The notes under the pieces are model-generated. The model was not told where the DNA came from. It searched no databases and saw nothing but the letters and a program-made list of their open reading frames with translations. A DNA stretch of 64,000 bases, taken from the IMG/VR virus record IMGVR_UViG_3300021963_000030; one strand, given 5' to 3'. A program made the position numbers and the translations under genes. Source of the stretch: a virus. Shown here piece after piece: positions 6,225 to 37,913 of this stretch (within the stretch, counting starts at the first letter, position 1; every line of letters starts with the position of its first letter).

Positions 6225-6248
6225 ATGGTATACATAGATTTTTATATT

Positions 6249-19205: not shown

Positions 19206-21857
19206 ATGAGTTACAGCAAAAAAGTTGTTTATTTTGGATCAGATGGTGCGAGTGGGTATGCTAATGCGGCTAAGGGATACATTTATGACTTAATACAAAG
19301 TGGTCATGAAGTATTTTTTGGAACATTATCTGGTGCTCCAGTAAAAGACGATACTGAGTTTTATAACTATTTTCATAAGAATGTTAAGAAAATTCCAGTC
19401 TTTTCCAAGAAAGAAAAACTTGAAGGTGCGGATGTAGTAATTCATTTTACTCCCGATATTTGGAATAAAGTAATTAATTCTCACAAAGACTGGATTGGCA
19501 ACAAGAAAGTTATTGGTAGAACCGTATGGGATTTTGATCCTGTTCCTGACAAGTGGGTAAAAGACATTAACGACAGTATTGTTAATGTTGTTAGCGTTCC
19601 ATCCGAATGGTGTAAAAATGTGTTTATTAAGTCTGGTGTAAAAAAGGATGTAATTGTAGAACCACACACTGTTCCAAACATTAATTATACTAAATATGGT
19701 TTGGTAGATCTATTAAATAATGCTAGAGTATTTAGTCCAGTCCCCATCAATTATCAACGGTATACAAAACGAGTAAAATTCTTAAATATATCTTCATTGG
19801 TAGCACGAAAGAATACTGGATTTTTGATCGAAGCATATTTGGATTCGTTTACATTTGATGATGAAACTCTACTAATATGCAAGTTCACTGATCACATCAA
19901 TAATATCTCTCATATTGAAAAACATATACAAGAGATAATTCTAAAGAAGATCAAGAATAAAGAAAAAGATTATGCCTATGCTCCAATTGTAGTAATAAGT
20001 GAACGATTGAGTTTCGATAAAATTCAAAGTCTACATGATGATACAGACATTTATGTTAATGTATCTAAGGGTGAGGGCTTCAATATACCATGTTATACTG
20101 CTTCAAGAAAAAATAAAGATATTGTTACTCTATTACACGGAGGTATGACAGATTATCTGACAAACTATCCGAAGTTATTTGAAGTTGACTATAACACTGT
20201 TAATATCAGTAGTGTAGATAAAAGTGTAGATTTATCTATGATGATGTGGATCAATATGAATACTAAGAGTGTTGATCCTTCATATGAAGATTTGTGTAAT
20301 AGTCTCAAATCCGCCTATTATTCCAACATCAAAAAATGTGTATACTTTGATTCGGTTGAACTTTATCAACCACATACAACTTTGACTGAAGAGTCATCGC
20401 TGTTTCCAATTTATTTTAAAAACGGATGGCACAATGAATTGTTGACGGCAGGTATTTGGTCTGAAAAACAATCTGAAATGGTGATCGGTCCAGATGTTCA
20501 TAAGATTGAGTTTTTATTAGAAAGTGTTCAAGATAACGTAATAACTTTGACTATAAACGATGTGGATCATGTTTATCAAGTAAAACGTGGTCAGTATTCA
20601 TTAAAGGTAATTTCTAAAGAAGAAAAACATATCGAATTCGACTGTCAAACCACAGTGAATGGGTCGTGTGTAGGTAGAAATGAGGATAAAGATTATGGTG
20701 TCAAAATTGTTGACATTTACGTTAATGGTATCAAAAACTCAACGAGTAAGCTTGTATTAAAAGATGCAAATTTCAACGAACGTGTGCTTGTAGATAGTGG
20801 ATTTATTATAGAAAAATCGAATGTCTTGAACAAGGGTGAATACGGAGATATTATCATTAAGTTCAAAGAGTTGACTGATAATAACAAATACCCAAAAAAG
20901 ATCAATCTTGGTAAACAACTTTCATTTTATTCACATAGATCTGGATGGAATTATGTGTTACACAACATGGCCGCACTCAATAGTAACAGCGGTGTATATT
21001 GCGATGGTTTTATAGAAAATAATTTTAGTTGGAGAAAAACAGAGTGCATTCTTCAAAAGACAATTCCATATAACAAGAGTTGGGTCGGATTTATTCACAA
21101 CCCACCAAACATGCCACCATGGTTTAGTGATAATAATGCGTTTTGTAACATCATATTGCAAGATCCATATTTTCTAGATAGTCTTAGAAAATGTAAAGGG
21201 TTATATACACTGTCAGAGTATCACGCCAAAGTAATACGACAGTATGTTCCATTTGTTCCAGTCGAGTCATTGTATCATCCAACTGAAATTCCAGAGTTAC
21301 AATTTGATTTCGAAAAATTTGTCAAGAATCCAGAAAAGAAACTTATCACTATTGGATGGTGGCTTCGTAAGTTAAATGCATTATATACCGTTAACCCCGA
21401 CGGATATCAGAAGGTAAGATTGCTGCCAAACAACAAGTGTAAAGATACAATTTTTAGATTGGAAAAAATAGAATCATTGGTCAACAATCAACAAATAACT
21501 GACGAACAAAGAAATTCTGTAAGAATACTTGACTTCTTACCTAATGATGAATATGATAAGATACTGACTGAAAATTTAGTATACCTTGATTTATATGATA
21601 GTAGTGCCAATAACGGTATCATTGAATGTATGGCTAGAGCAACCCCAATATTTATAAATCGACTTCCCGCAATTGTTGAGTATTTGGGAGAAGGATACCC
21701 ACTATATATTGACAGTCAATATGACTTGGAAGCTAAAATAAAAGATTTAGATTTGATAAAGAAAGCACATCTTTATCTAAAAACAATAAGATACAAAGTT
21801 GAAATTGGCCACTTTTTAGAGAGTATGGTCAATTCAAAGATATATAAGAGTTTATGA
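19206..21857 (+). CDS. multidomain glycosyltransferase (GT4-like, beta-sandwich, second GT-B-like domain)
   Basis: N-terminal SGYANAAKGY, HFTPD, SKGEGF; C-terminal HRSGW, GFIHNPP, IGWWLRK, DSSANNGIIECMARATP. Confidence 0.8.
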   Translation: MSYSKKVVYFGSDGASGYANAAKGYIYDLIQSGHEVFFGTLSGAPVKDDTEFYNYFHKNVKKIPVFSKKEKLEGADVVIHFTPDIWNKVINSHKDWIGNKKVIGRTVWDFDPVPDKWVKDINDSIVNVVSVPSEWCKNVFIKSGVKKDVIVEPHTVPNINYTKYGLVDLLNNARVFSPVPINYQRYTKRVKFLNISSLVARKNTGFLIEAYLDSFTFDDETLLICKFTDHINNISHIEKHIQEIILKKIKNKEKDYAYAPIVVISERLSFDKIQSLHDDTDIYVNVSKGEGFNIPCYTASRKNKDIVTLLHGGMTDYLTNYPKLFEVDYNTVNISSVDKSVDLSMMMWINMNTKSVDPSYEDLCNSLKSAYYSNIKKCVYFDSVELYQPHTTLTEESSLFPIYFKNGWHNELLTAGIWSEKQSEMVIGPDVHKIEFLLESVQDNVITLTINDVDHVYQVKRGQYSLKVISKEEKHIEFDCQTTVNGSCVGRNEDKDYGVKIVDIYVNGIKNSTSKLVLKDANFNERVLVDSGFIIEKSNVLNKGEYGDIIIKFKELTDNNKYPKKINLGKQLSFYSHRSGWNYVLHNMAALNSNSGVYCDGFIENNFSWRKTECILQKTIPYNKSWVGFIHNPPNMPPWFSDNNAFCNIILQDPYFLDSLRKCKGLYTLSEYHAKVIRQYVPFVPVESLYHPTEIPELQFDFEKFVKNPEKKLITIGWWLRKLNALYTVNPDGYQKVRLLPNNKCKDTIFRLEKIESLVNNQQITDEQRNSVRILDFLPNDEYDKILTENLVYLDLYDSSANNGIIECMARATPIFINRLPAIVEYLGEGYPLYIDSQYDLEAKIKDLDLIKKAHLYLKTIRYKVEIGHFLESMVNSKIYKSL

Positions 21858-22276
21858 ATATCAAAGAAATATATTACAATAACAAGATATACACAGTGCC
21901 AACAACATCAGTAAAGCACATTGATAATAGCGACGTAACACAAATAGAAGAAGATTTGATAGTTTATTATTCGGATCAACATCAAGCTTGGAGAGAAGCT
22001 TCGTTAGACCTACAAAAAATGTATACGAATAAGGTAGTTGTAAATGTTTTGTCTGGTGATGAGACTTTAAAATTAAAAGTGAATGCCGACGACGTAATTG
22101 AAATTTTAGATAAAAAAGTAGTTAAGGTGAAGTTGGAATCAATTGTAGTGTGTGACGATGATGTTAAAAATATTTGGAAAGTAGTAGACCAAAGTAATGA
22201 CCTATGTAAGCTTTATAAAATATTTGATCAAAACAAACATCGATTAAGTGCTGAAAACAAAATATTCAATGGATAA
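21854..22276 (+). CDS. hypothetical protein
   Basis: 140-aa ORF with ATGA overlap. Confidence 0.65.
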   Translation: MNIKEIYYNNKIYTVPTTSVKHIDNSDVTQIEEDLIVYYSDQHQAWREASLDLQKMYTNKVVVNVLSGDETLKLKVNADDVIEILDKKVVKVKLESIVVCDDDVKNIWKVVDQSNDLCKLYKIFDQNKHRLSAENKIFNG

Positions 22277-22281
22277 AGTTA

Positions 22282-23376
22282 ATGAAAGATTTGTCTAAAA
22301 AGTTTTGTTTCAAACCATGGGACCATCTAGAAATTGGACCTGGACAAACACACAGATTACCAACAGAATACACTGAAGATGTTGTTTATCCATGTTGTTC
22401 AAATTGGATAAACAGATATCATTTTGGCAAAATTGACAAAGATATCAAATTTAATGATGTGTGGAATAGTGATAAAGCAAAGAAATTTAGACAATCAATT
22501 TTAGATGGTAGTTACAAATATTGCAATAAAACACTATGTCCTTGGATACAGAATAACAATTTGCCAGATGTGGACGATGTAATTTCTGGAAAACATGGAG
22601 AAGAAAAAAAGAATATATATCTGACCAAAGAATTACATTCTGATTATCCAAACTATATCAATCTATGTTATGACAAAAGTTGCAATTTAAAATGTCCAAG
22701 TTGCAGAAAAGATTTTGAATTTTTGACCGAAAAAAGCGACAGTGAATTATATTTGTATAAACTAGCGCATCAGAAAAATTTGATTGAATATTTGTATACA
22801 TGTAAGACAAAAACATGTGTCAATATAACTGGATCTGGAGACCCATTTGCTAGTAGGTTGTTTTGGGAACTTATTACTTCATTTGATGGTATCAAAAATC
22901 CATTGTTACAATTTCAGTTTCAAACAAACGGCGTTCTTTTTACAGAAGAAAACTGGAACAAAATGAAGAACCTACACAATAACTGTATAACAGCTGTAAT
23001 TAGTTTGGATGCCGGAACTGAAGAAACATACAATTACACCAGACGAGGTGGAGACTGGAATAAACTCATGAACAATTTGCAATTTGTCAAACGTCTTTTT
23101 GATGAAAAGAAATTGTGGTATGTTAGATTAGATTTTGTTTGTCAACAGAAAAACTACAAGGAAATCCCGCTTTTTATTGATATAGCAAAAAAATACAATT
23201 TTCACTGTTATTTGTCAAGAATTGATAACTGGGGAACATACTCCGAAGAAGAGTTTAAAGTCCACAATATATTTGATAAACATCATCCAGAACATAGTGA
23301 ATTTCTGAAAATAGTTAATCAAACATATGATTATGAATTCATCGATTTTGGTAACCTAAGTGAGTTCAGAAAATAA
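22282..23376 (+). CDS. radical SAM protein with N-terminal SPASM-like Cys cluster
   Basis: CNLKCPSC (CxxxCxxC), GSGDPF, QTNG, SLDAG; N-terminal FC..PW, YPCC, YCNKTLCP. Confidence 0.9.
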   Translation: MKDLSKKFCFKPWDHLEIGPGQTHRLPTEYTEDVVYPCCSNWINRYHFGKIDKDIKFNDVWNSDKAKKFRQSILDGSYKYCNKTLCPWIQNNNLPDVDDVISGKHGEEKKNIYLTKELHSDYPNYINLCYDKSCNLKCPSCRKDFEFLTEKSDSELYLYKLAHQKNLIEYLYTCKTKTCVNITGSGDPFASRLFWELITSFDGIKNPLLQFQFQTNGVLFTEENWNKMKNLHNNCITAVISLDAGTEETYNYTRRGGDWNKLMNNLQFVKRLFDEKKLWYVRLDFVCQQKNYKEIPLFIDIAKKYNFHCYLSRIDNWGTYSEEEFKVHNIFDKHHPEHSEFLKIVNQTYDYEFIDFGNLSEFRK

Positions 23377-23380
23377 AGTT

Positions 23381-24508
23381 ATGTCAGAAGTAATTCATTT
23401 TAATTCAAATCCTCTAAAATGGCATGGTGACTTAACTTTGTGTCACGATAAAACAATCAACAAGTCGTATAGATCGTTGGAAGATATAGGATGGGAATTG
23501 GAAAATTATGCACCTCACTATTGGGGGCCGATTAATCCAGAATATTATCAGGCCTCGACGTTGTTTGTCAGAAAACATAATGGCAAAATGGAATATGGTC
23601 ATTATGGAGACAGTCGTGCTACAGAAACATCTCTGTTGTTTAATGATGTTGATGCCGAATTCAATTTTAAAGATTTTGATTGGATACAAATTTTCTTAGC
23701 AGATGCTGGACCAACAATCCGCATGTTAGAAAATATCAAAATTCCAGTATTTACTACTGCGTATTATAACTTTGAATTTAAGAATTATGAACCCGATCTG
23801 GGCGTTCCAAATCCAGAACGATATATGCCGGATGTTAAAAAATTGACACTACCATATCATTACAATCGTGGTTTATTGGTCAATAATACTTTGTCAGTTT
23901 TACCAACGTGTGCTTATAACAATTTCTTTGGTGTTAATTTTAAGAATCTAATCAAGTTTAAAAAAGAATACGCTAAACATCACCGAGGCCTTCAACAAAA
24001 AGTTGGATGGCGTGGATCTATGAACTGTCATCAAAGATACTTACTTGTCAAGTTATCCCATGACAATTTTGATATGATTGATGCAAAACAGTGGGTAGGG
24101 ATACCAAATTATTGTCCTCCGGCAAATAAAGACTTTTCAAATCAATTCATATACAATGAATATATGACACTAGAAGATCAGATTACACAATTTGATTATT
24201 TGATTGAAGTTGGGGCAGGAGGATTTAGTGGAAGAGTGCCACACCTTATACAGTCAAATAGAATAGTGTTATCTACTGACCATCCAGTTTGGTCTTATGC
24301 TGAACATCAACTAGTGTCTGATATACATTACGTTAGAATAAAAAAGGACTTAAGTAATTTAGTTGAAAAACTTCAAGATATGAAAAATAACCCTCAGAAG
24401 TATGAGGTTATTAGAGATAATATGTATAATTTGTCAGAAACACACTTTACATTGGAAAATATCCGTAAAATTGTATACGAAACAATGTGCATCAGACTAA
24501 ACTTATAA
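23381..24508 (+). CDS. GT90 (CAP10/POGLUT-like) glycosyltransferase
   Basis: GWRGS, FDYLIEVGAGGFSGRV, HYVRIKKDLSNLVEK. Confidence 0.8.
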   Translation: MSEVIHFNSNPLKWHGDLTLCHDKTINKSYRSLEDIGWELENYAPHYWGPINPEYYQASTLFVRKHNGKMEYGHYGDSRATETSLLFNDVDAEFNFKDFDWIQIFLADAGPTIRMLENIKIPVFTTAYYNFEFKNYEPDLGVPNPERYMPDVKKLTLPYHYNRGLLVNNTLSVLPTCAYNNFFGVNFKNLIKFKKEYAKHHRGLQQKVGWRGSMNCHQRYLLVKLSHDNFDMIDAKQWVGIPNYCPPANKDFSNQFIYNEYMTLEDQITQFDYLIEVGAGGFSGRVPHLIQSNRIVLSTDHPVWSYAEHQLVSDIHYVRIKKDLSNLVEKLQDMKNNPQKYEVIRDNMYNLSETHFTLENIRKIVYETMCIRLNL

Positions 24509-24512
24509 ATTT

Positions 24513-25520
24513 ATGTATAGAATCACAAATATAATTGATAAAGATATTCATTTATATACGTTTGAATTCAAAAAACGTTCCAGCATCATTTTTCGGGAAT
24601 TTCCAAAGTTTTTAAATATTTATGTCGAAAACACCGACTTCGCATATTTGTTGAAACGATCTTCTTGGTTAAAAAATGAAAACTTAACTCATGTGAAAGA
24701 AGACTTCACATTTGACAAAGAGGTAGAACATTTATCTCACGCATCATTATTTTTGTTTGATGATTATTTTGGTAATTATCTACATTACTTTCTAGAAACA
24801 TTTCCTAAATTGGAATATTTCATGCGAATAAAAGAAAGTATCCCAGATTTAAAGTTGATTGTTCCTGACTTTATGTGGGATGTATCATTTATCAAAGAAT
24901 CTATTCTTTTGTATTTTGATAATAACATGAATGATGTGGTAGTATTAAGTGGTTCTAAACATTATACATGTGATAGATTGTTAATACCCAGTAATGTATA
25001 TCTATGGCCTGATAAGGGATATTTTTCAAGTATCATACATGACAGTTTTAAGACATTATCAAACAAGGTTACTATTGACGATAAAAAAGAAGGTGTGTAT
25101 ATTTCGAGACAAGATATTGTCAAACTTGGTTGGAGACACAATAGACATTTACAAAATGAACTAGAATTGATTGATAAGATCAAAACCAAATTCGATTACG
25201 ATATAATTGAGCTATATGATTTGAACATGTATGATAAAATCAAAGTATTCAAGTCATACAATAATATAATACAGACAAATGGTGCTGCTATGATAAATTT
25301 ATTGGTATGTCAACCAAATACAAACTATCACATCATTTCACATCCATTGTATGGTCCATGGGCAAACCCAATATTGAGAGACTCGGCAAATAGATTGGGC
25401 GTCAATTTTTATGATTACGATTATGCTAAATTACTTGAAGATCATGAACCTATTGTAGGTGATACCAATAATAGACCATGGCGATTGGAAAACATAGACC
25501 ACATGTTATCAAGACTATAA
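24513..25520 (+). CDS. GT61 (DUF563) glycosyltransferase
   Basis: NYLHYFLE, VYISRQ...R.LQNE.EL, QTNGAAMINLL. Confidence 0.8.
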   Translation: MYRITNIIDKDIHLYTFEFKKRSSIIFREFPKFLNIYVENTDFAYLLKRSSWLKNENLTHVKEDFTFDKEVEHLSHASLFLFDDYFGNYLHYFLETFPKLEYFMRIKESIPDLKLIVPDFMWDVSFIKESILLYFDNNMNDVVVLSGSKHYTCDRLLIPSNVYLWPDKGYFSSIIHDSFKTLSNKVTIDDKKEGVYISRQDIVKLGWRHNRHLQNELELIDKIKTKFDYDIIELYDLNMYDKIKVFKSYNNIIQTNGAAMINLLVCQPNTNYHIISHPLYGPWANPILRDSANRLGVNFYDYDYAKLLEDHEPIVGDTNNRPWRLENIDHMLSRL

Positions 25521-25523
25521 TTT

Positions 25524-26498
25524 ATGGAAAAGATAAAACTCAAAGGCGGATCATTAAGCGGCGTATATCTCATCAAGGATGACAAAAAAACATATGTGAG
25601 AAAAGAAGTTTCGGTGTTACACAATAGAGAATATGGATTTCAAAGATGGTATTCGCAACTTAAAAAGATTCAGAGATATAACTCATTGTTTCCAAATTTG
25701 TTTCCAGAGTTAATATCATACGGATTAGAAGAAGACATTGCATATTTTGATATGGAGTATTTAGAAAACGCCATATCAGCACATAAGTTTGTATGTTCAA
25801 CCACCGATCCCAAAAAGATTGAAATATTTCTAGAAAATCTATTATCGTCGATGAACAGACTTCATTCTGTTAAATTGAAATCTAACACGAACTCTCTCGA
25901 TCTATACATAAAAGAAGAAGTATTACAGAAGTTAAATGATGCTATAATTGATGATATATTTTTACAGTTTGTCAAACATAAAACAGTTAATGTTAATGGT
26001 TATGACATAAACGCTTTTTATTATGAAGTGGATAACTATACATCATTATTTAAAAAAGTATACAATAATCCAGTTGAGTGTTTTACTCACGGAAATATAA
26101 CATTGGAAAATTTATTATACGATGAAGAGAATGATAAATTATACTTCATAGATCCATACGAAGAAAACATAATCGACTCTTCTTTAACAGAGTATTCTCA
26201 GATATTTCAATCAACTAATTCAAAATATGAGATATATAATAACCTAGATATAGATGTGGTCAACAACAATTTGATTATAAACAACGTTGATAATTTTGGA
26301 GTAGACTATTTGAATAAATTGTTCGATGACCATCTACGCAAAACAATCAGTAATGATCAATACATAAGTGTAAAATTGTTTGAAGTATCTCAGTTTGTAA
26401 GAATGCTCCCATTTAAAAAAGAAATTGACAAAAATAAGATGTTATTTTTCTACATATTAGCATCGAAGTTATTTAATGATGTTAAAATCCTATTATGA
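25524..26498 (+). CDS. APH/choline-kinase-fold protein, candidate cyclitol/sugar kinase
   Basis: LKGGSLS Gly-loop, VRK, DMEY, HGNITLEN (Brenner-like motif with Asn), FIDP. Confidence 0.7.
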   Translation: MEKIKLKGGSLSGVYLIKDDKKTYVRKEVSVLHNREYGFQRWYSQLKKIQRYNSLFPNLFPELISYGLEEDIAYFDMEYLENAISAHKFVCSTTDPKKIEIFLENLLSSMNRLHSVKLKSNTNSLDLYIKEEVLQKLNDAIIDDIFLQFVKHKTVNVNGYDINAFYYEVDNYTSLFKKVYNNPVECFTHGNITLENLLYDEENDKLYFIDPYEENIIDSSLTEYSQIFQSTNSKYEIYNNLDIDVVNNNLIINNVDNFGVDYLNKLFDDHLRKTISNDQYISVKLFEVSQFVRMLPFKKEIDKNKMLFFYILASKLFNDVKILL

Positions 26499-27613
26499 CA
26501 GAATATGAGATAAATACTACATTGTCTGTAAATTATAAAATTAAAAACTCTCCGGGGATTTTTAATATGAATAATTTGGATTTATTGTATTGTAATTCGG
26601 ATGTATTTTCAAACCGAAGATTCCTTGTCATCGATGAAAAAATATATAAATTGTTTGCAAGCGAGATAAAACAATATTTTGAACATCACAATATATACAC
26701 AAAAATTGTGACGCTGGACTCGGAAGAGATTTCAAAAACAGATTCAAAGTTGATTGAGTTGTTGGAAGAAATTGAGAACTTTAACTTAAATAGAAGAAGT
26801 GAACCTATTATTTGTATAGGTGGCGGAATAATACTTGATATAGCTGGGTTAGCATCATCGTTATATAGAAGAGGTATACCATACATAAGAGTTCCTACTA
26901 CATTATTGGGAATTGTGGATGTATCTGTCGCAGCTAAAACCGCAGTCAACTTTAAGAATAGACGAAATAGACTTGGATCGTATTATCCACCAATACTAAG
27001 TTTAATAGACAAATCATTTATATACACACAGACGTTGAGTGACATAAGTTCTGGTATGGGTGAAATTCTTAAGATGGCGGTAATCAAGGACCATGATCTG
27101 TTTTGTATTTTGGAAAAATATGGTTCCGAAATAATGCACAACAAGTTTAATCATCCACAATCCGATCACGTTATTCATCTGTCAATAAAAGGAATGATAG
27201 AGGAGTTAGAAAATAATTTGTGGGAGAAGAATTTAAAGAGACTTGTAGATTTCGGTCATACATTTAGTCCAATTATTGAAATGCGATCTCTTGGAACAGA
27301 TTGTGAATTAAAACATGGTCAAGCTGTGGCATTGGATGTTGTATTCTCTTCGATAATATCATATAATAGAAATATTTTATCGTATGACGAATTGGTAAGA
27401 ATTATAAACACATCAAAAAATCTTGACTTGCCAACGGCACATGAATATTTTTGTAACTTTTCATTTTTGAGAGAATCATTAAATGATGCTACTAAACATA
27501 GAAATGGAAATCAAAACATGCCTATTCCAACAAAAATTGGTGTGGGGAGTTTTGTAAATGATTTAACCGATGATGAAATAATAAAAGCAATCGAAGTTTT
27601 TAAAACTATATGA
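26495..27613 (+). CDS. sedoheptulose-7-phosphate cyclase, 2-epi-5-epi-valiolone synthase (ValA/AcbC) type
   Basis: IGGGIILD, RRGIPYIRVPTTLLGIVD, KTAVN, RNRLGSYYPP, GEILK, MIEELENNLWE, RLVDFGHTFSP, LKHGQAV. Confidence 0.85.
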   Translation: MTEYEINTTLSVNYKIKNSPGIFNMNNLDLLYCNSDVFSNRRFLVIDEKIYKLFASEIKQYFEHHNIYTKIVTLDSEEISKTDSKLIELLEEIENFNLNRRSEPIICIGGGIILDIAGLASSLYRRGIPYIRVPTTLLGIVDVSVAAKTAVNFKNRRNRLGSYYPPILSLIDKSFIYTQTLSDISSGMGEILKMAVIKDHDLFCILEKYGSEIMHNKFNHPQSDHVIHLSIKGMIEELENNLWEKNLKRLVDFGHTFSPIIEMRSLGTDCELKHGQAVALDVVFSSIISYNRNILSYDELVRIINTSKNLDLPTAHEYFCNFSFLRESLNDATKHRNGNQNMPIPTKIGVGSFVNDLTDDEIIKAIEVFKTI

Positions 27614-28287
27614 AAAAAACAGTAATAATAACAGGAGTTAGCAGTGGTGTTGGAAAAAAGGCGGTCGAAAAGTTCTTGTCAAAGAAATGGAATGTGATAG
27701 GGCTTTCTAGAAACAAAGTTGATTTTTCCAGTAAAAATTATTTGCATATAGAGACAGATTTGAAGAGCGTCGAGTCGATAAAAAAAACATTTGACGTTAT
27801 ATCCGATAAATTTGATTCGATTGATTTATTGATTAACAATGCTGCTATATTTAAAATGAAACCCTTTACTGAGTTTTCAGAACAAGAGATCAATGACATT
27901 ATAGATACAAATATCAAAGGGGTCATTTTTTGCACACTGAATACATTGAAAATTATGAAACAGGGTAGAATAGTGAATATAAGCTCTGTATCTGGAACGC
28001 ATGGAATAGAAAATCAATCAGTATACAGTTCGACCAAATATGCTCTAAATGGATTTTCTGAGTCTTTAAATCAAGAACTTATAAAGAAAAATATATTAAT
28101 CACTACAATTTGTCCTGGCGGAATAAATACCCCTTTGTGGAATGAGAAAAATAAATACCCAGGTGGTGACACAAACAAACTTTTGAAAGATGAAGATGTT
28201 GTGAACATGATAGAGTATGTATCTGAATTGCCTAAAAATGTAGTTTTGAAAAATGTAGTTTTGTTTCCAACATGCGAATGGCATTAA
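27610..28287 (+). CDS. short-chain dehydrogenase/reductase
   Basis: TGVSSGVG, LINNAA, NISS, YSSTK (YxxxK), ICPGGINT. Confidence 0.95.
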   Translation: MKKTVIITGVSSGVGKKAVEKFLSKKWNVIGLSRNKVDFSSKNYLHIETDLKSVESIKKTFDVISDKFDSIDLLINNAAIFKMKPFTEFSEQEINDIIDTNIKGVIFCTLNTLKIMKQGRIVNISSVSGTHGIENQSVYSSTKYALNGFSESLNQELIKKNILITTICPGGINTPLWNEKNKYPGGDTNKLLKDEDVVNMIEYVSELPKNVVLKNVVLFPTCEWH

Positions 28288-28291
28288 TATT

Positions 28292-28996
28292 ATGAATCTT
28301 ATACTAACGATGGCCGGTAAATACTCTCGGTTTGTCAACGAGGGATTTAAAATTCCAAAGTATCTATTACCTTGGGCAAATCACACGATATTGTCCGAAA
28401 TATTGTTTAATCTGACAAATCAAAATGTGTTCAAGAATGTATTTTTGGTTGCCAACAAAAACGATAAAAATTTCATGTATCAAATTTTGTATACAATGAA
28501 ATACTATAATATCCCGCAAGAAAACTTAGTCTTTATAGGTGATACAAAAAGTCAATGTGAAACCGCCTTACACGGCATTGATAGATTTAAAAATAGATTG
28601 GTGAACGGACCTATATGTTTTCATAATATAGACACTATATTGTATGAACGAGATTTACACCACATTTCAAATAGTTTGAATAAGTATGATGGATATATCG
28701 ATATATTTACTTCAAATAATCATGAATATAGTTACATATTAACTGATGACATATATGTAAAGGACATACAAGAAAAAATACTGATATCTTCTGTAGCCAG
28801 TTCTGGATTTTATGGATTTTCTAACACAGATACGTTTTTTAAATATTACGAGGATGACTACTTCAGCAAGACATATAGAAATATGATAAATGATGATAAA
28901 AAAGTAGTTTTTGGTAATTTACACAATGAGAATAATACTCTAGTGTTAGGAACTCCAAAAGAGTATTTTTACTTATCTAGTAAACACATCGTTTAG
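28292..28996 (+). CDS. nucleotidyltransferase (GT-A/NTP_transferase fold)
   Basis: LTMAGKYSRF...PKYLLP, HNIDT, ASSGFYGF, LGTPKEY. Confidence 0.85.
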   Translation: MNLILTMAGKYSRFVNEGFKIPKYLLPWANHTILSEILFNLTNQNVFKNVFLVANKNDKNFMYQILYTMKYYNIPQENLVFIGDTKSQCETALHGIDRFKNRLVNGPICFHNIDTILYERDLHHISNSLNKYDGYIDIFTSNNHEYSYILTDDIYVKDIQEKILISSVASSGFYGFSNTDTFFKYYEDDYFSKTYRNMINDDKKVVFGNLHNENNTLVLGTPKEYFYLSSKHIV

Positions 28997-29811
28997 TTGG
29001 AAAAGTAGTTTTTCCAAAACTTGTATACATCCACAATGTTACTTTCGTTAACATTGTTGTTTTCAATAATATATTTCCATGATCTAAAACATTCGACATC
29101 GACTGGAGTTCCAAGACATGCGTATTTTGTGGCATCATATTGGGTTACTTTTAGTCCATCTTGAATCATTAGGTTGTAAGGAACAGTAACATAGTATTCA
29201 CCATTGACGCAAATCTTTTCATTCATTAGACGATTGAAATAGTGTTTCATCAATTTACCAGTCTTAAAGTAATAGATACCATTTGATGCTGGTTCATTTG
29301 GTTTTACTAATTCCATGGGTTTCTTTTCATGCACATACGATACAAAACCCTTTTCATCCACCGTGAGAAATGCAAATGACTTGTTATACAATTTATGTGG
29401 CACAAAACCAGTGTGAGTCACAACAACACCATCTGAATTTGATTCTCGACAGTGTTTAAGAAAATCTGTAAAGTCCCAATTTTGTGTGAGATCACAATAG
29501 CTTACAATTACTTCTTCGTCATCGGGGATGTTGTCAAAAGCATTTGAAATCGAATATACAGGACCCAGTGTATTTTTGTCGATAGCTACAATCTTTGACA
29601 CCTTGGATTCTAATATGGCCCTTTCAATAGCGTTAGCTGACAAATCATCTTTTCTGACAATGAATATAAAGTCTTTGTCTTCTACGGTGGGAAACATGTC
29701 CAACACATAATCCAATATCTTTTTACCCTCGATCTTTATCAAAGCCTTAATTGGATATCCCTTTGATGTAAAACGTTCACTATTTCCCGAAAGTGTTATA
29801 ACAATCTTCAT
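28993..29811 (-). CDS. nucleotidyltransferase (dTDP-glucose pyrophosphorylase-like)
   Basis: LSGNSERF...IKALIK, VSYCD, ASNGIYYF, NGEYYV, LGTPVD; start placed at ATG 29811. Confidence 0.88.
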   Translation of the reverse strand: MKIVITLSGNSERFTSKGYPIKALIKIEGKKILDYVLDMFPTVEDKDFIFIVRKDDLSANAIERAILESKVSKIVAIDKNTLGPVYSISNAFDNIPDDEEVIVSYCDLTQNWDFTDFLKHCRESNSDGVVVTHTGFVPHKLYNKSFAFLTVDEKGFVSYVHEKKPMELVKPNEPASNGIYYFKTGKLMKHYFNRLMNEKICVNGEYYVTVPYNLMIQDGLKVTQYDATKYACLGTPVDVECFRSWKYIIENNNVNESNIVDVYKFWKNYFSN

Positions 29812-30250
29812 AAAATTTAATGTTGTCACTTATTATGCCATCAAACTGTAAAATTTCATCGACAGTATAGTTTGACATTTCTGGCATCATTAATATGCCT
29901 TTTCTATAAGTAGTAACTGTGTGCGGATTTATTAGAATTTTTCCTTTACTAGATAGTGTAAATTTATCATTGGTGTGACTGAATATGTCCAATACTGGTA
30001 ATGAACTCAATTTGAACAATGAAGCATCATCTTTACAGTGGATCAGTAATCTTGTATAATGTTTTTTCAAAAACTGGTCATTAATTTTCCACACGGGTTC
30101 ATCGTGACCTAAATATAATACATCATCTTTACACCAAATATCAATTTCGACATCATATCCCTCTGATATCACGTTTTCGATAACGGATGGAACGTTTTCG
30201 TTGATCTTATGACGACCCTGTAAGTTTCCTCTATGACTAATGAATTTCAT
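29780..30250 (-). CDS. GDPD/PLC-like phosphodiesterase-fold protein
   Basis: ISHRGN...EN, GYDVEID, LYLGHD, IHCK; start placed at MKFISHRG (30250). Confidence 0.8.
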   Translation of the reverse strand: MKFISHRGNLQGRHKINENVPSVIENVISEGYDVEIDIWCKDDVLYLGHDEPVWKINDQFLKKHYTRLLIHCKDDASLFKLSSLPVLDIFSHTNDKFTLSSKGKILINPHTVTTYRKGILMMPEMSNYTVDEILQFDGIISDNIKFYEDCYNTFGK

Positions 30251-30317
30251 TTTTACAATATATATTTGAAAGTCAAATTCCAAAACAACTATATCCAAAA
30301 TATAATAATTCATCAAA

Positions 30318-30345
30318 TTGACATGTCGTCTAGTTATGGTATGAT
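30318..30345 (+). promoter_or_regulatory. sigma70-type promoter with extended -10
   Basis: TTGACA-16nt-TATGAT with TGn, 15 nt before ATG 30361. Confidence 0.65.
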
Positions 30346-30360
30346 TGAATCTAAACTAAT

Positions 30361-30795
30361 ATGAAAGTTATTACAATACAACAACCGTTTTATTTAAAGT
30401 ATGTTTCGGCTCTCAAGAAGTTGACAAAAAAGTTATCTAGAATCAAGACCGAACCAAAAATTCAAAGAGAGTCTGATCTGTGGTATGGTCTTGAACAAGC
30501 AAATGACAAACCATTTAGGTGGTCTCATCCACTAACAAAGGTTAATATTCAAAACGTAGACAAGGTTGTATTTGTTTTTTCTGATCCAATTGGTCGAGAA
30601 ATGACTTTCAAATCAAAAGAGGTAGACCACACTATCAAGTTGGCACCAGGGGAAGAATACAAGGTAATTGTATCTACGTATGATGCAAATGAAATCTCCA
30701 TCAGAATAGATCCATTTAATCCAGATAACGACACACGTTCACTTGGTGCTCAATATTATTCTATCACTTCTGAAGATACATTGGTATTGAACTAA
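30361..30795 (+). CDS. GT-associated beta-sandwich-like domain protein (paralog A)
   Basis: WYGLE...FRWS...DP.GRE...NDTRSLG, shared with 32223-32648. Confidence 0.7.
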   Translation: MKVITIQQPFYLKYVSALKKLTKKLSRIKTEPKIQRESDLWYGLEQANDKPFRWSHPLTKVNIQNVDKVVFVFSDPIGREMTFKSKEVDHTIKLAPGEEYKVIVSTYDANEISIRIDPFNPDNDTRSLGAQYYSITSEDTLVLN

Positions 30796-30796
30796 T

Positions 30797-32215
30797 ATGG
30801 AGAAATACAATCAGAACAGTATTGATTTCTTACGAGAACGTAGTAATTCTTTGGTGTTGATATCCAAAGATAAAACTGTTCTTGATAGTTTGAAGTCTGA
30901 AAAAGACATTGAACTATATTTGATCGATGATATGGATGCTTTGAATGGTATTGGTATCTATAATGAATTGATCAAGAAACTTGGCAAAACGTTTGTATTT
31001 GTCAATAGTAGTTTCGAAGAAAATAAGTTCTTAAGGTTTGTAGTCAATAGAACGCTGAATGTATTTGAAAAGGAAAAGATTTTTTGTAATATTATCGTAT
31101 ATCCAAAATATGATTTTCCTCGTAAAGAGACCCTCAAGAAGATCAGTCTAATCAAGTTGTTCAATCGATCAAATATCGAATTGGACATCGTGGACTCGGT
31201 ATATTACGTTGGTCAGTATGGAACAAGTGGTTATGCTACCGCAGCTAAAGGTTACATCGCAGAATATGTTACAAAAGGTGTTCCAATTTGTTGGCACACG
31301 TTACGGTTTGATAGTAGTAAACTCGATACCACAAACTACGTCAATGCTCTTGCTGAAAGCGCAATGAATCGATCTTTGCCTGGTAAAGATCAAATTACGT
31401 TACATTCGACTCCCGATTTGTGGCCCGAGTTCATAAGAAAGTATGAATGTTCTAAATACAAACGTGTTGTGGGATATTGTGCTTGGGAAAGTAGTAAGTT
31501 ACCTTCTAAGTGGGTTGATTGTATTAACATGATACCTGAGGTATGGGTTCCGTCTGTATACAACAAAGAGGTTTATGAAAAATGTGGTGTCAAATCCAAA
31601 GTAGAAGTTGTGCCTCACGTATGGTTTGATCAAAAACTCTTGGATAAGAGTAAGATTAATATTACCGACTGTTTCGGAACTGAACTAAGCAAGACCAAAT
31701 ATACATTTTATAGCATTGGTGAGTTGACCGCACGTAAGAGTATTGAAGAGTTGGTTAAGGTATTTGACAAGTTAAATAATAAGTATCCTAATACCCAACT
31801 TCTTTTAAAGGTTCACTATAAAGATTATACTCTAAACAACATTAATTATATCGTTAACAAGTTGAGTGTATTGACTGATAAAATCGGTAAAAGTGTTCAC
31901 TTGTTGTTGATGAATCTTAACGAACGTGAAATGTTAAGTTTGCACAGTTTTGGTGACTGTTATGTAAGTCTTACTAAGTCAGAAGGATTTGGATTGACTA
32001 TCTTTGAAGCATTTCATCTTAAAAAGGATGTTATTGCTACTGGATATAGTGGTCACATCGACTTTCTTGGCAAAGACCATCCTGGATTGGTAAAATATAA
32101 AATTGGATCAATTCAAGGTATGGAAACGTTCAGTGCTAATTATACTAGTGACCAAGAATGGGCATACCCAGATTTGGAACATACTTATGCTTTAATGGAA
32201 TCAAAAGTGAAATAA
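30797..32215 (+). CDS. GT4-like glycosyltransferase with N-terminal extension
   Basis: SGYATAAKGY, HSTPD, WESSKLP, VWVPS, KSEGFGL. Confidence 0.88.
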   Translation: MEKYNQNSIDFLRERSNSLVLISKDKTVLDSLKSEKDIELYLIDDMDALNGIGIYNELIKKLGKTFVFVNSSFEENKFLRFVVNRTLNVFEKEKIFCNIIVYPKYDFPRKETLKKISLIKLFNRSNIELDIVDSVYYVGQYGTSGYATAAKGYIAEYVTKGVPICWHTLRFDSSKLDTTNYVNALAESAMNRSLPGKDQITLHSTPDLWPEFIRKYECSKYKRVVGYCAWESSKLPSKWVDCINMIPEVWVPSVYNKEVYEKCGVKSKVEVVPHVWFDQKLLDKSKINITDCFGTELSKTKYTFYSIGELTARKSIEELVKVFDKLNNKYPNTQLLLKVHYKDYTLNNINYIVNKLSVLTDKIGKSVHLLLMNLNEREMLSLHSFGDCYVSLTKSEGFGLTIFEAFHLKKDVIATGYSGHIDFLGKDHPGLVKYKIGSIQGMETFSANYTSDQEWAYPDLEHTYALMESKVK

Positions 32216-32652: not shown

Positions 32653-33690
32653 ATGAAAAAATTACTATATCTCTGTTGTCACTGTGTGTTGGAATATGAC
32701 GAACTCCGACTTCTTCATGAATTAGGTTATGATGTATTTACCAATGACGCATATCACCGTCCAAAAACGCCGGTAGTAAATAGAAGACCACCTCTGAATA
32801 TTGAAGATAAGCCAGATTATCTCCAGAAGTTTTACGATATGTGTCATGTCAATTCACATAATCCAGACGTTAAGCCAGAACAATACAATAACTTGTTGAC
32901 TGATGCCATGATTGATTCATTTGACACAATCATGATCATGCATCTTCCTAGATTCATTGAACAAAACTGGGATCGTATCAAACACAAGAATGTTATCTGG
33001 AGAACTATTGGACAATCTACTGCTGATGTTGAAGCCAAGATGCAAAAGTATCGTGCTGAAGGTCTGAAGATTGTTCGTTATAGTCCAAGTGAACGTGAAC
33101 TGGGTAATTACTGTGGTGAAGATGCGATGATTCGATTTGCCAAGTATAAGAACGATTATCTACCATATGTTGGCGATCAAAATTATGTGATGACGTTTGG
33201 TCAGAACGTGGTTGGTAGAGGTGATCATTGCAGATACGATTTGATTCGTCATGTTGCAAAAGATTTCAATTTCAAGTTGTTTGGACCAGGCAATCAAGCT
33301 GCTCCTATGGACTGTGGTGAATTGGACTACAAGGATCAGTTGGTTGAACTATCAAAGAACAAAGTCTATTTGTATAGTGGAACCTGGCCAGCATCTTATA
33401 CATTAAATTTCATGGAAGCCTGGATGAGTGGAATTCCAGTTGTTGCTCTCGGTGATGAACTCGCTAGCAAAGTTGGTAAGTTCCCATACGAAGTTAACAA
33501 GTTGATCAAACACGGAGAAAACGGATTCTGTTGCAACAATGTTGCTGAACTCAAGGAATGTATTCGTGAAATAATGACCGATACAAATTTTAGAAAGAAG
33601 ATCAGTGAGAATGGTAGAAAAGCTGCTATTGAATATTTTGATGCAGAATCTATCAAACCTCAATGGAAAGCATTTTTTGACAAACTATGA
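32653..33690 (+). CDS. GT4-like glycosyltransferase
   Basis: YTLNFMEAWMSGIPVV, IKHGENGF, ISENGRK; start placed at 32653. Confidence 0.85.
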   Translation: MKKLLYLCCHCVLEYDELRLLHELGYDVFTNDAYHRPKTPVVNRRPPLNIEDKPDYLQKFYDMCHVNSHNPDVKPEQYNNLLTDAMIDSFDTIMIMHLPRFIEQNWDRIKHKNVIWRTIGQSTADVEAKMQKYRAEGLKIVRYSPSERELGNYCGEDAMIRFAKYKNDYLPYVGDQNYVMTFGQNVVGRGDHCRYDLIRHVAKDFNFKLFGPGNQAAPMDCGELDYKDQLVELSKNKVYLYSGTWPASYTLNFMEAWMSGIPVVALGDELASKVGKFPYEVNKLIKHGENGFCCNNVAELKECIREIMTDTNFRKKISENGRKAAIEYFDAESIKPQWKAFFDKL

Positions 33691-34844
33691 AAGTATTTTG
33701 TGATTTTCACCATCGTGATTTAGTTAACTCAATGTGTCACCTATTCGAAAAAAGAATGGGTGCCGAACTGTATGTTCCTTATGGAATGGATTATTACAAA
33801 CAAGGATACTGGAGAATTGTTGATGCAAATATTGACAGTGTTGCGGAACAATTCTTGATAAACCAATTTGGTAATGATGGTCTACAAGAATTTACAGATA
33901 ATGAAGATGGAACAGTGTTGGTAAAGTCTAATGATGGTAAATTGCCATATAAAGGTATGGACTTTGAAACGTTCTGTAAAACTAAGTTCGACATCATTAT
34001 TGCTACTGTTCCAGCGCACATTCCTCTTTATATGAAGTTGTTGAAGGATCATCAACCTCAAGCCAAGTTTATTTTTGAAGCGGGTAACAATTGGGGTAAC
34101 ATCAACACCAACGTTCCCAACTTCTTGAATTCAACAACATATACATTTGTTTCGGGTGAAGATATACATGGGTTGACCATGACATCTCTTTACAAGAAAT
34201 TCCAAAAGAAGGACTTGTATAAGGGTATGCACAAGATATTCCAGAACAGACGTAATGGCAAGAAATGTAACATGGTTTTCTTCCATCCAGAATTTGATCT
34301 GAACATCTTTAAGAATAACAATAGTATCAAAAACATCAAGAGTATTAGTAACATACGTCATAACTGTAATACTCTTGGTGGGTTATATGAACTTGAACGT
34401 CGTTTACCAGATTGGACTATCAAAGCGTATGGTGTTGGTAATAGAGATGGCGAACTAAAGACAGATTATGACATTGCTAGAGTGATGAATGAATCTGGAT
34501 TTGTGTATCACGTTAAGCCTGTGGGTGACGGTTATGGATACAACGTTCACCAAACTTATGCTGTTGGTAGTATTTTGATTACAGACAGCAGTCACATGAC
34601 CAGCGCGGGAAATCCAGAAGAATGGTTTACGTCGCAACTATTATTGGACACTGAGAATTATGGAACCAAACCAACATTTGTTGATTGGGGTAAGTATAAC
34701 TACGACAGTGTGGTAAACAGATTGAAGTGGTGTGCCGATAACTATCCGACCATGCAAGAAAACGTCATAAATAAATTCAAAGAAGTTGTGGACTTTGATG
34801 AAGAATACCAAAAGATTCGTGTATTTATTGAAAGACTAATATGA
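33687..34844 (+). CDS. GT-B-like glycosyltransferase (paralog of 34841)
   Basis: MKVFCDFHH, GVGNRDG, HVKPVGDGYGYNVH. Confidence 0.7.
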   Translation: MKVFCDFHHRDLVNSMCHLFEKRMGAELYVPYGMDYYKQGYWRIVDANIDSVAEQFLINQFGNDGLQEFTDNEDGTVLVKSNDGKLPYKGMDFETFCKTKFDIIIATVPAHIPLYMKLLKDHQPQAKFIFEAGNNWGNINTNVPNFLNSTTYTFVSGEDIHGLTMTSLYKKFQKKDLYKGMHKIFQNRRNGKKCNMVFFHPEFDLNIFKNNNSIKNIKSISNIRHNCNTLGGLYELERRLPDWTIKAYGVGNRDGELKTDYDIARVMNESGFVYHVKPVGDGYGYNVHQTYAVGSILITDSSHMTSAGNPEEWFTSQLLLDTENYGTKPTFVDWGKYNYDSVVNRLKWCADNYPTMQENVINKFKEVVDFDEEYQKIRVFIERLI

Positions 34845-35836
34845 AAGTTTTAGCTGATTACCACCATTTATCTTTACTTAGATCCATTTACATTTTATTC
34901 AGTCAACGACTTAACTACGAATTGGAAATTCCTAGTGGTTGGGATTGGTATTTTGAAGGATCATTGTATAGTTCATATGCACCAGAAGTTGGGTCTTATA
35001 CAATACATCCCGAATTCGATAATGCATATTTTAAACAATACATGCCTAAACTAGGTGGTGGCAGTTTTGAAAAGTTCAAGAACAATGAATATGATATTGT
35101 TGTATGCACTTTGCTTGAAAACTATATCACTTGGCAAACATTGATCAAACACTACAACCTAAAATGTAAGTTGATCTTTCAAATAGGCAATAACATTCCA
35201 CTATGGTGTCAACCTACACAATTTGAAAACTTATTGTCTAGTTCATGGCCATGTTATGTAAACTACCCATGTAAGAACAAGGTGTTTTATCATCAAGAAT
35301 TTGACACAACCAAGTTTACCCAAAAGTTAGATTGTAATAGAAAGTCAATAGCTAACCTTCAACATTTTATGCAAATGCCTGAATTGTTTTATGGTCTTGA
35401 AAAAGCTATGCCGGACTATACATTCAAAGCACATGGTGCGGGTAATAGAGACGGATATATTCCAAACGGTGAAGATGAAATGTCTAATTTTATCAAAAAC
35501 CTTGGCTTCTTGTTTCACTGTAAGGTTGTAGATGAAGGTTATGGACATAATGTTCACAACGCATTTGCTTGTGGTAAGCCTGTGATCGTAGATTCTACGC
35601 ACATGGGTGTGGATTGGAATGGTTGGATTGGTAATACTGCGTCATTAATGTTTGAAGATGGTAAAACTGTTATTGATGTGAATGGTAAGACTCAAAAAGA
35701 AATTGAATTCAAAATCAGAGAAATGACAGAAAACTACGAAGAAGTTAGTAATTATGTTATGAAGAAGTTTAAACAAGTCAGTGATTTTGATTATGAGTTT
35801 CTTCAAATTAAGTCATTTTTGGCAAATCTAGTATGA
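34841..35836 (+). CDS. GT-B-like glycosyltransferase (paralog of 33687)
   Basis: MKVLADYHH, GAGNRDG, HCKVVDEGYGHNVHNAFACGKPVI. Confidence 0.7.
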   Translation: MKVLADYHHLSLLRSIYILFSQRLNYELEIPSGWDWYFEGSLYSSYAPEVGSYTIHPEFDNAYFKQYMPKLGGGSFEKFKNNEYDIVVCTLLENYITWQTLIKHYNLKCKLIFQIGNNIPLWCQPTQFENLLSSSWPCYVNYPCKNKVFYHQEFDTTKFTQKLDCNRKSIANLQHFMQMPELFYGLEKAMPDYTFKAHGAGNRDGYIPNGEDEMSNFIKNLGFLFHCKVVDEGYGHNVHNAFACGKPVIVDSTHMGVDWNGWIGNTASLMFEDGKTVIDVNGKTQKEIEFKIREMTENYEEVSNYVMKKFKQVSDFDYEFLQIKSFLANLV

Positions 35837-37038: not shown

Positions 37039-37913
37039 ACAAAGTTGATTTATTTGTTATATCTAATCCGACGTTTGATAGTCCTCTTATAAGAGACTTT
37101 ATTCACAAGTATTATACAAGATTCAACAAAGTATTTTATGTGTTTTCTTACTCGCAAGATTTTAATGAAAATTGGAGACCCTATACCAACTTCATTGAAA
37201 ATGACTTAAAAGATAAGTGTGAGATTATATACTCCAGAATGTCTGGAGCATTAAATTCAGACTGGCGTGACGAAGCGGTTCATGAAGTTCTCAAACGATC
37301 AACAGGTGACTATATTTTTAGTATGGAGCCTGATTTTATTGGTGACTGGGAAAAGATAGTGAATATCATGTTGAATGTAGACTATTCACTATTTTCGGTG
37401 ATAGAACACAATCTTACTGGTATAAGAATGTGGCCATCTTTTTGGGGGTGTAAGAAGTCATTGATGTCACAAATAAAATATCTTAATTTTGGTGCTACTG
37501 TAGATCAACGTGTCAAAGATTTATTTGGTGTTGATTACAATAAACGTTTAAAATTTGATAATGATCAATTGAAGTATCTTAACGCAGATGCTGTTAAAAA
37601 CTTCTACAAAGAACACAAAATTATAACCGAAGAAATGTCAGTTCCTCATTTTTACGACCACTTTGATTTGGTGTCTACACAGTTGATGGATATTGTTCAA
37701 GATGATGGAAAACAGTTGTTGTTGCTTGATAGACTGGATGTGTATTTTAAACACTTTGCGGGCATCACCCACGATTATCTGATGATGTATGAACATGGTC
37801 GTAAAGCTAGAAATGGTCCGGCATATAGGCTATTTCATGAACAGTGTATGAAAACAACTGTTCAATTGTTTCCAGAGTGGGTGACCATTTCAAATAAAAT
37901 ACTAGAAGAATGA
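37035..37913 (+). CDS. divergent GT-A-like protein
   Basis: WRDEAV, FSMEPDF (ExD), MWPSFW, DHFD, HFAG. Confidence 0.5.
   Translation: MNKVDLFVISNPTFDSPLIRDFIHKYYTRFNKVFYVFSYSQDFNENWRPYTNFIENDLKDKCEIIYSRMSGALNSDWRDEAVHEVLKRSTGDYIFSMEPDFIGDWEKIVNIMLNVDYSLFSVIEHNLTGIRMWPSFWGCKKSLMSQIKYLNFGATVDQRVKDLFGVDYNKRLKFDNDQLKYLNADAVKNFYKEHKIITEEMSVPHFYDHFDLVSTQLMDIVQDDGKQLLLLDRLDVYFKHFAGITHDYLMMYEHGRKARNGPAYRLFHEQCMKTTVQLFPEWVTISNKILEE

Follow-up and report, generated by a model that had tools for sequence, protein, structure and literature searches.

Which reaction is catalyzed by the sugar-phosphate cyclase (SPC) encoded at positions 26495 to 27613 of a 64,000-nucleotide stretch of viral DNA, and what is its product used for? 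The stretch, referred to below as the window, comes from IMG/VR virus record IMGVR_UViG_3300021963_000030 (64.5 kb, with a completeness estimate of ~22%). The initial annotation, made from the letters alone, had assigned the protein to the 2-epi-5-epi-valiolone synthases (EEVS), the class of ValA, rather than to the 3-dehydroquinate synthases (DHQS) of the shikimate pathway, and had suggested that a lysine-to-arginine change in its active site could give rise to a new cyclitol stereoisomer. We found the class assignment to be sound. The main interest of the locus is a phage-borne, widely distributed cassette of four genes, of which the cyclase gene is the second, and the lysine-to-arginine point is minor. 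The reading that we favor, and consider reasonably probable, is of an EEVS-type cyclase in a mobile cassette that would supply a nucleotide-activated C7 cyclitol donor for glycans. The gene itself is as follows.

26495..27613, + strand: predicted EEVS-type sedoheptulose-7-phosphate (S7P) cyclase, 372 amino acids (aa), assigned from Pfam, PDB scores, the AroB model, motifs and a tree

The open reading frame (ORF) is uninterrupted from an ATG start, and the opposite strand is riddled with stop codons. Both domains of the DHQS-superfamily fold were detected in its product (Pfam DHQ_synthase, E 2.9e-28; DHQS_C, E 2.1e-23). The motifs quoted in the initial annotation were all found, namely MIEELENNLWE at residues 234-244, RLVDFGHTFSP at 249-259 and NRLGSYYPP at 158-166, and the metal ligands that it had described as intact are E190 (in EILK), H255 (in HTF) and H274 (in HGQ). 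These ligands align with those of ValA and AroB and are kept in all three EEVS-like clades described below; the enzyme would depend on NAD+ and metal. Comparison with the homolog in a related phage contig, L002, gave a proportion of nonsynonymous differences (pN) of 0.146, a proportion of synonymous differences (pS) of 0.716 and a dN/dS ratio of ~0.07, with dS near saturation. The cyclase is under strong purifying selection.

To which class of SPC the protein belongs was addressed with solved structures, a family model, individual residues and a phylogeny. Among solved structures, ValA (4P53) was the best match (E 7.8e-84, 285 bits, aligned over 359 residues), followed by the Anabaena desmethyl-4-deoxygadusol synthase (DDGS; 5TPR) with 190 bits (E 3.6e-55), DHQS with at most 117 bits (E 7.9e-33 or weaker) and 2-deoxy-scyllo-inosose synthase with 87 bits. 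Against the NCBIfam equivalog model for AroB, TIGR01357, the cyclase scored 200 bits, under the cut-off of 305 that 10 of 14 control genomes exceeded. In the 4P53 alignment, residues D252, P259 and H335 of the cyclase correspond to Asp281, Pro288 and His360 of ValA, the positions having been mapped from the printed ValA and DDGS alignments with native ValA numbering equal to chain numbering minus 6. The DDGS 5TPR has Ala at the site of D252 and Thr at that of H335, and in two aroK-linked AroB proteins the three sites are occupied by Asn, His and Val, respectively. We take D281, P288 and H360 to be the published sites that discriminate EEVS, and the numbering derived from 4P53 fits them; at the third of these, DHQS presumably carries Lys, and the two AroB proteins compared here have Val. 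The existence of a residue fingerprint in SPCs is confirmed by a 2015 paper in eLife.

The motifs separate the cyclase from both AroB and DDGS. Where it reads VDFGHTFSP and KHRNG, the Salmonella and Acinetobacter AroB proteins read LNLGHTFGH and KKVL[AN]G, the latter from the C-terminal region of the phosphate-binding Lys, and where it reads NNLWE and FGHTFSP, DDGS reads PNLHE and YGHTWSP. A phylogeny had been proposed in the initial annotation, with grouping with AroB as the outcome that would speak against its assignment. We rooted a maximum-likelihood tree on AroB, with two aroK-linked aroB genes (Salmonella and Acinetobacter) from phage-collection records as outgroups. In this tree, which held no characterised EEVS, DDGS or 2-epi-valiolone synthase (EVS), the cyclase fell apart from AroB, at a branch of ~3.3 substitutions per site, and in the EEVS-like group. 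There it belonged to a 25-member clade (SH-aLRT 95) that is a neighbour of the ValA clade rather than a part of it, and it paired with its L002 homolog at 100. The class assignment stands because the PDB ranking, the AroB cut-off, the fingerprint residues and the tree concur. Thus, the protein is very probably an S7P cyclase of the EEVS type, and its product from S7P would most likely be 2-epi-5-epi-valiolone or a very close isomer.

With ValA the cyclase shares its fold and family, the metal ligands, the Asp/Pro/His residues and the NLWE and VD[FY]GH[ST]FSP motifs. It differs from ValA in forming a separate clade, in carrying Arg ahead of the active-site Asn together with three further differences fixed in the clade, and in being encoded by a phage in a glycan island instead of an antibiotic cluster, with a product that is predicted only. 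With AroB it has in common the superfamily, the NAD+ and metal sites and the general mechanism, and it differs in falling under the equivalog threshold and at three substrate-binding positions.

The arginine in question, Arg157, precedes the conserved Asn158 (RRNRLG), at which ValA reads HKNRLG, DDGS reads LKNRLG and the two AroB proteins read GKNM[IL]G. The Lys before Asn that is usual in EEVS (KNRLG) is therefore lacking from the cyclase, but it does not strictly define the family, as Arg is present in EEVS-labelled sequences. RRNR was invariant in an alignment of 21 homologs with 51-76% identity. Among 91 EEVS-like sequences from viral and cellular contigs, three motif states were found, and these formed separate clades in the tree.

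RRNR[LI]G: clade of the window cyclase, Arg in 25 of 25 members, cassette present
HKNRLG: large actinomycete clade, representative scoring 439 bits to ValA, no cassette
[YF]RNRLG: second actinomycete clade, 348 bits to ValA, no cassette

Four positions are fixed differently between the clade of the cyclase and that of ValA, with E94, S144, R157 and F253 in the former and D, G, K and Y in the latter. S144 and R157 are common to the cyclase clade and the second actinomycete clade. None of the four is a metal ligand or fingerprint residue, and the remaining conserved motif residues are identical in the cyclase and ValA clades. The SPC sequence set of the eLife 2015 paper contains 148 xNRLG sequences, of which 145 read KNRLG, two YRNRLG and one ARNRLG, and never RRNR[LI]G; at least two of its three Arg-bearing entries are labelled EEVS. 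The substitution reported in the initial annotation is thus real, but it is not a private or notable active-site change, being fixed in a 25-member clade and in an actinomycete clade. Judged from these alignments, Arg157 would be a clade marker and not evidence of new chemistry.

Could the cyclase nevertheless make something else? One possibility is an S7P cyclase that releases another cyclitol, 2-epi-valiolone or an undescribed stereoisomer, through R157, S144, E94 and F253. Lys is otherwise near-universal at the site (in AroB, ValA, DDGS and 145 of the 148 published sequences), and the clade of the cyclase is distinct from that of ValA and absent from the 2015 reference set. The Lys-to-Arg change is conservative, though, and because Arg at this site is fixed in the clade and occurs in EEVS-labelled sequences, it is weak evidence for a new stereoisomer. 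The site lies beside the active-site Asn and, as we assume, is not among the 14 fingerprint residues that have been published; the two clades have fixed differences at just four sites, and the cyclase agrees with ValA in its metal ligands and its Asp/Pro/His fingerprint. SPC products can be redirected by minor changes in the active site (PMC4426668, PMC5133447), but confirmed EVS enzymes cluster with DHQS-like sequences (PMC5133447), and the cyclase, unlike them, is far from such sequences in its PDB scores. We consider a different stereoisomer unlikely, and the argument from the arginine to a new product is unsupported in the form given by the initial annotation, with Arg present in EEVS-labelled sequences and the rest of the catalytic core identical to that of ValA. 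The other possibility is that the protein is a true AroB, serving as an auxiliary gene for aromatic amino acids, or a DDGS for mycosporine-like sunscreens. Relatives of the cyclase are often named 3-dehydroquinate synthase in databases, and prasinovirus genes that bear the same label have been interpreted as aromatic amino acid genes (PMC5371798). Against this stand the score of 200 bits relative to the AroB cut-off of 305, the replacement of Asn, His and Val by D252, P259 and H335, and the absence of shikimate genes near the cyclase. For DDGS, both fingerprint sites differ and the score is 95 bits below that of ValA. Either identity is highly improbable.

EboD and the NCBIfam family P_lya_rel_AroB were considered and rejected as well: the score was 166 bits relative to a cut-off of 400, and ebo-type neighbours were absent. 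Separately, we noted a lone divergent EEVS-like cyclase in a giant-virus metagenome-assembled genome (MAG; L015, IMGVR_UViG_GVMAG-M-3300023184-117_000001) at positions 6001-7038. It is 44% identical to the window cyclase, reads FKNRIG, retains the Asp and His of the fingerprint and has no cassette. This gene may bear on whether the prasinovirus genes labelled 3-dehydroquinate synthase are S7P cyclases.

The genes with which the cyclase is encoded bear on the use of its product. In the window, it is accompanied by three partners.

25524..26498, + strand: kinase-like protein with a protein-kinase-like fold, 324 aa (AlphaFold2, Foldseek, weak Pfam)
27610..28287, + strand: classical short-chain dehydrogenase/reductase (SDR) ketoreductase, 225 aa (Pfam adh_short, E 9.5e-47)
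28292..28996, + strand: nucleotidyltransferase NT1, 234 aa (profile comparison with the PDB, NCBIfam)

The cyclase ATG overlaps the stop codon of the upstream kinase-like gene, and the cyclase stop codon overlaps the SDR start, in both cases by 4 nt (ATGA), an arrangement from which the cyclase is predicted to be translationally coupled to its partners. The cassette as a whole consists of a kinase-like gene (~325 aa), the cyclase, an SDR gene (~225 aa) and NT1 (~235 aa). Over 21 loci of the cassette clade, the kinase-like gene adjoined the cyclase at every one, NT1 was present at 20 and the SDR at 17. These loci were also searched for a fifth gene, ideally a transferase, that is present with the cassette throughout; none was found, and no other gene occurred in more than four.

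The cassette was together in eight of nine viral loci, and cassette identities, viral and cellular, ranged from 37 to 80%. Viral carriers are L002 (71-80% identity), the 394-kb contig L003/L008 and four further contigs (L009-L014, with L012 and L013 identical); the order of the cassette is rearranged in L011-L014. Two assembly contigs of unknown origin, L004 and L005, also bear it. Cellular carriers are Polynucleobacter sp. 80A-SIGWE (GCA_018882295.1), a Woesearchaeota MAG, and several Myxococcota, Desulfobulbaceae, Balneolaceae and Fibrobacteria MAGs. Among the viral loci, only that of the giant-virus MAG has the cyclase without the cassette. When compared with L002, all four cassette genes gave pN of 0.12-0.17 and pS of 0.72-0.77. 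The cassette is most likely horizontally mobile and, by analogy, would resemble building-block cassettes of the rmlABCD type, with a constant core in a variable glycan locus.

In cellular loci, 81 flanking ORFs were mostly of surface-polysaccharide type, including family 2 glycosyltransferases (GT2), Wzx-type flippases, GDP-mannose dehydratases and epimerases, DegT aminotransferases, GT61 and PMT_2; 74 flanking ORFs of viral loci covered the same functions, with GT1, methyltransferases and NodZ in addition. The Polynucleobacter cassette sits in a locus of LPS type, between Wzz, ManC and GT2 genes on one side and GT9, DegT and dTDP-sugar isomerase genes on the other. No polyketide synthase, nonribosomal peptide synthetase, ATP-grasp, MT-Ox or pseudoglycosyltransferase-type genes turned up in the flank surveys.

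The kinase-like protein gave no match in the PDB by sequence, single or profile, and the fold search alone resolved it. With an AlphaFold2 model of mean confidence (pLDDT) 93, the top Foldseek matches were N-acetylhexosamine 1-kinase (NahK, 4OCJ) and 5-methylthioribose kinase (MtnK, 2PUN), both of which are anomeric C1 kinases, and the next were fructosamine-3-kinase (3JR1), LicA (4R7B) and APH(2'')/APH(4). Weak Pfam matches were found among 23 homologs to Choline_kinase (12), Fructosamin_kin (8) and APH (6). Residues K27, E195, N196 and D210 are invariant, and residues 189-196 read HGNxTLEN, as opposed to the usual HxDxxxxN of this fold. In the SDR, TGxxxGxG, S126, Y139 and K143 are invariant, and its PDB relatives are FabG-like. 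The profile of NT1 matched the PDB entry 4EVW, a "nucleoside-diphosphate-sugar pyrophosphorylase", at E 8.3e-19 and ribitol-5-phosphate cytidylyltransferase (4JIS) at E 7.5e-4; NT1 also matched the NCBIfam archaeal sugar-1-phosphate nucleotidylyltransferase model (E 1.5e-5) and, weakly, Pfam IspD and NTP_transf_3. The NT1 proteins of L028, L029 and L033 are only 24-29% identical.

From the enzyme class, the intact catalytic residues, the conservation of the cassette, the folds and families of the partners and the glycan-type neighbourhood, we infer a substrate, product, order of steps, nucleotide and acceptor for the pathway as follows. The cyclase would turn S7P into a free keto-cyclitol, of which the SDR would reduce the ring ketone. 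The kinase-like protein would then phosphorylate a hydroxyl, most plausibly the new pseudo-anomeric one because of its NahK/MtnK-like fold, and NT1 would join the cyclitol phosphate to a nucleoside monophosphate to give a nucleotide-activated C7 cyclitol. The variable glycosyltransferases encoded around the cassette would draw on this donor. In the phage, the donor would serve to decorate the surface polysaccharide of the infected cell or the virion, and in bacteria and archaea, lipopolysaccharide or capsule-type glycans. That the cassette makes a nucleotide-activated cyclitol seems probable to us; that the cyclitol ends up in a glycan has about an even chance.

Known systems offer partial parallels. 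In the GDP-valienol branch of validamycin, acarbose and pyralomicin biosynthesis, an S7P cyclase, a kinase, a reductase and a nucleotidyltransferase are likewise encoded together, and the GDP-valienol formed is passed on to a pseudoglycosyltransferase. The cassette differs from this branch in its kinase of protein-kinase-like fold, its 234-aa, 4EVW-like NT1 and its surface polysaccharide context, and it has no conserved epimerase, dehydratase, phosphomutase or ValL/AcbS-like transferase. We take ValC and AcbM to be ROK/glucokinase-type proteins, and the ValB/AcbR-type nucleotidyltransferase to be GlgC-like; the partners of the cassette appear to be non-orthologous to those of validamycin and acarbose. 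LicA/LicC and TarJ/TarI are similar in combining, in glycan loci, a small-molecule kinase of the same fold and/or a reductase with a nucleotidyltransferase of ~230 aa. They differ in acting on choline or ribitol phosphate substrates and in having no cyclase, and the likeness holds at the fold/superfamily level only.

The second of these parallels suggests another route, in which the cyclitol would be activated as a CDP-alcohol-type donor and a phosphotransferase would add cyclitol phosphate through a phosphodiester, following LicA/LicC or TarJ/TarI logic. The fold search placed LicA (4R7B) high among the matches of the kinase-like protein, NT1 matches 4JIS as well as, weakly, IspD and NTP_transf_3, and by our own reasoning such a route would sidestep a difficult glycosyl-type transfer from a saturated carbocycle. 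However, NT1 matches the NDP-sugar pyrophosphorylase far more strongly, the kinase-like protein is closest in fold to anomeric sugar kinases, and no LicD-, TagF- or Stealth-type phosphotransferase was present among the scanned window genes or the commonest flank families listed. This route is in our judgment rather improbable. Less probable still, and quite unlikely, is a pathway that ends, like the EEVS pathways of actinomycetes, Burkholderia and vertebrates, in a free small molecule rather than a glycan unit, for instance an inhibitor of glycosidases or trehalase, a signal or a compound akin to sunscreens. Characterised EEVS pathways all end in small molecules (PMC12904256, PMC4426668), but here the conserved core includes a nucleotidyltransferase, and the cassette is flanked by genes for glycosyltransferases, flippases and enzymes that modify NDP-sugars. 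In addition, the cassette has no conserved companion of the MT-Ox, ATP-grasp or pseudoglycosyltransferase type, and DegT genes are found in some flanks but are not conserved.

Several observations weigh against a pathway leading to a nucleotide-activated cyclitol for glycans. The clades of the tree were anchored by PDB scores and motif states and not by characterised EEVS, DDGS or EVS enzymes, and no biochemistry was found for any member of the clade to which the cyclase belongs. The catalytic Asp of the Brenner motif is replaced by Asn in 22 of 23 kinase-like homologs, which suggests that the protein may not be an ordinary phosphotransferase; the substitution may point to an alternative base (E195) or to non-classical chemistry. 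The SDR is missing at four of the 21 loci. At these loci, the cassette is not consistently accompanied by a dehydratase, an epimerase or a ValL/AcbS-like enzyme, and no transferase co-occurs universally with it. Finally, ordinary glycosyltransferases make poor use of a saturated carbasugar nucleotide as donor, and the pseudoglycosyltransferases known to date take the unsaturated GDP-valienol.

In the window, the cassette lies within a glycan island, of which the remaining annotated features are listed here.

19206..24508, + strand: upstream island of an 883-aa glycosyltransferase-like protein, a 140-aa ORF, a radical SAM/twitch protein and a GT90-like protein (PHROGs, Pfam, NCBIfam)
22282-23376: the radical SAM protein, between glycosyltransferase genes (Pfam Radical_SAM and SPASM; N_Twi_rSAM, E 2.6e-18)
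24513..25520, + strand: GT61-family glycosyltransferase, directly upstream of the cassette (Pfam Glyco_transf_61, E 1.6e-17)
28993..29829, - strand: NT2, a second, accessory nucleotidyltransferase (GlmU/RmlA/MobA-like), convergent (Pfam NTP_transf_3, E 2.9e-10)
29780..30316, - strand: accessory 178-aa protein of unknown family (no Pfam or NCBIfam match)

The 883-aa protein matched the glycosyltransferase family phrog_2170 (E 2e-13) and the GT90-like protein matched Glyco_transf_90 (E 7.8e-8). A GT61 homolog, 55% identical, occupies the same position in L002, and GT61 is also found in two cellular flanks. In the radical SAM protein, the SPASM/twitch-type match (residues 35-82) is N-terminal to the radical SAM core (residues 134-274), and a homolog was present only in L029 (30%). 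NT2 matched NCBIfam glmU over its N-terminal part (E 4.8e-10) and had homologs near the cassette solely in L003, L010, L025 and L033; that of L003/L008 is fused to a HAD hydrolase domain. Homologs of the 178-aa protein adjoin the cassette in L003 (37%) and in the Balneolaceae locus L025 (44%). Besides NT2, GT1-family proteins are also encoded downstream of the cassette. Beyond the GT1 genes, window positions 33687-40041 hold six co-oriented overlapping ORFs of 292-401 aa, for which no Pfam match was obtained at E 1e-3, and which may also belong to the glycan island, representing unknown families. A gene resembling GDP-mannose 4,6-dehydratase lies outside the island at 56626-57816 on the - strand, matched at 311 bits in two stretches and under the equivalog cut-off of 415; the phage therefore has further NDP-sugar genes.

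The window belongs to a large T4-like phage and not to a cell, because comparisons with PHROGs and with a phage collection revealed T4-type replication genes. Its polymerase matched phrog_262 (E 8e-177) and its clamp loader phrog_168; the nearest deposited phage by polymerase is Microcystis phage Mel-JY01 at 43%, followed by gp43 of T4-like cyanophages at 28-30%. A fragment of a giant virus (nucleocytoplasmic large DNA virus) had been suggested by the family-B polymerase, the RFC-like clamp loader and the 22% completeness, and was ruled out by the T4-type replication genes. In L002, the gene order is conserved from the clamp-loader genes through the cassette. GC content is 30-33% over the glycan island (window positions 20001-32000), as compared with 35-38% in the flanking replication-gene regions, which is consistent with horizontally acquired DNA. 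In the other large viral carrier, L003/L008 (IMGVR_UViG_3300047994_000374, 394 kb), genes for Thg1, a PTH2 peptidyl-tRNA hydrolase and IF3 were noted within 8 kb of the cassette. An EEVS-type gene was absent from 50,697 deposited phage records, in which the sole matches, 25-32% identical, were AroB-like; those that carry an annotation are aroB genes of bacterial or bacterial-looking records. A literature search found no paper linking an S7P cyclase to phages or giant viruses.

The enzyme family is a known one; this branch of it stands out in forming a clade of its own, in having partners that appear not to be orthologous to the known ones, and in occurring in glycan loci and phages. As far as we found, this would be the first virus-encoded S7P cyclase pathway on record, and the label 3-dehydroquinate synthase on viral and metagenomic genes of this clade would be wrong, and these genes would not belong among the auxiliary genes for aromatic amino acids. 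To our knowledge, C7 cyclitols (carbasugars) have so far been known only from antibiotics, enzyme inhibitors and sunscreens. We tentatively propose, while rating the idea as somewhat less than evenly probable, that they are ordinary surface-glycan units in many uncultured bacteria and archaea, and that large phages carry a full four-gene supply module with which they place a non-hydrolysable pseudo-sugar on their virions or on the infected cell, for instance to keep out superinfecting phages or withstand glycosidases; the Asn of the kinase-like protein might mean unconventional chemistry. If this is true, carbocyclic sugar mimics would gain a structural role in glycans instead of one as secreted bioactive compounds, and glycosidase-proof units would matter for phage-host recognition, serotype diversity and glycoengineering.

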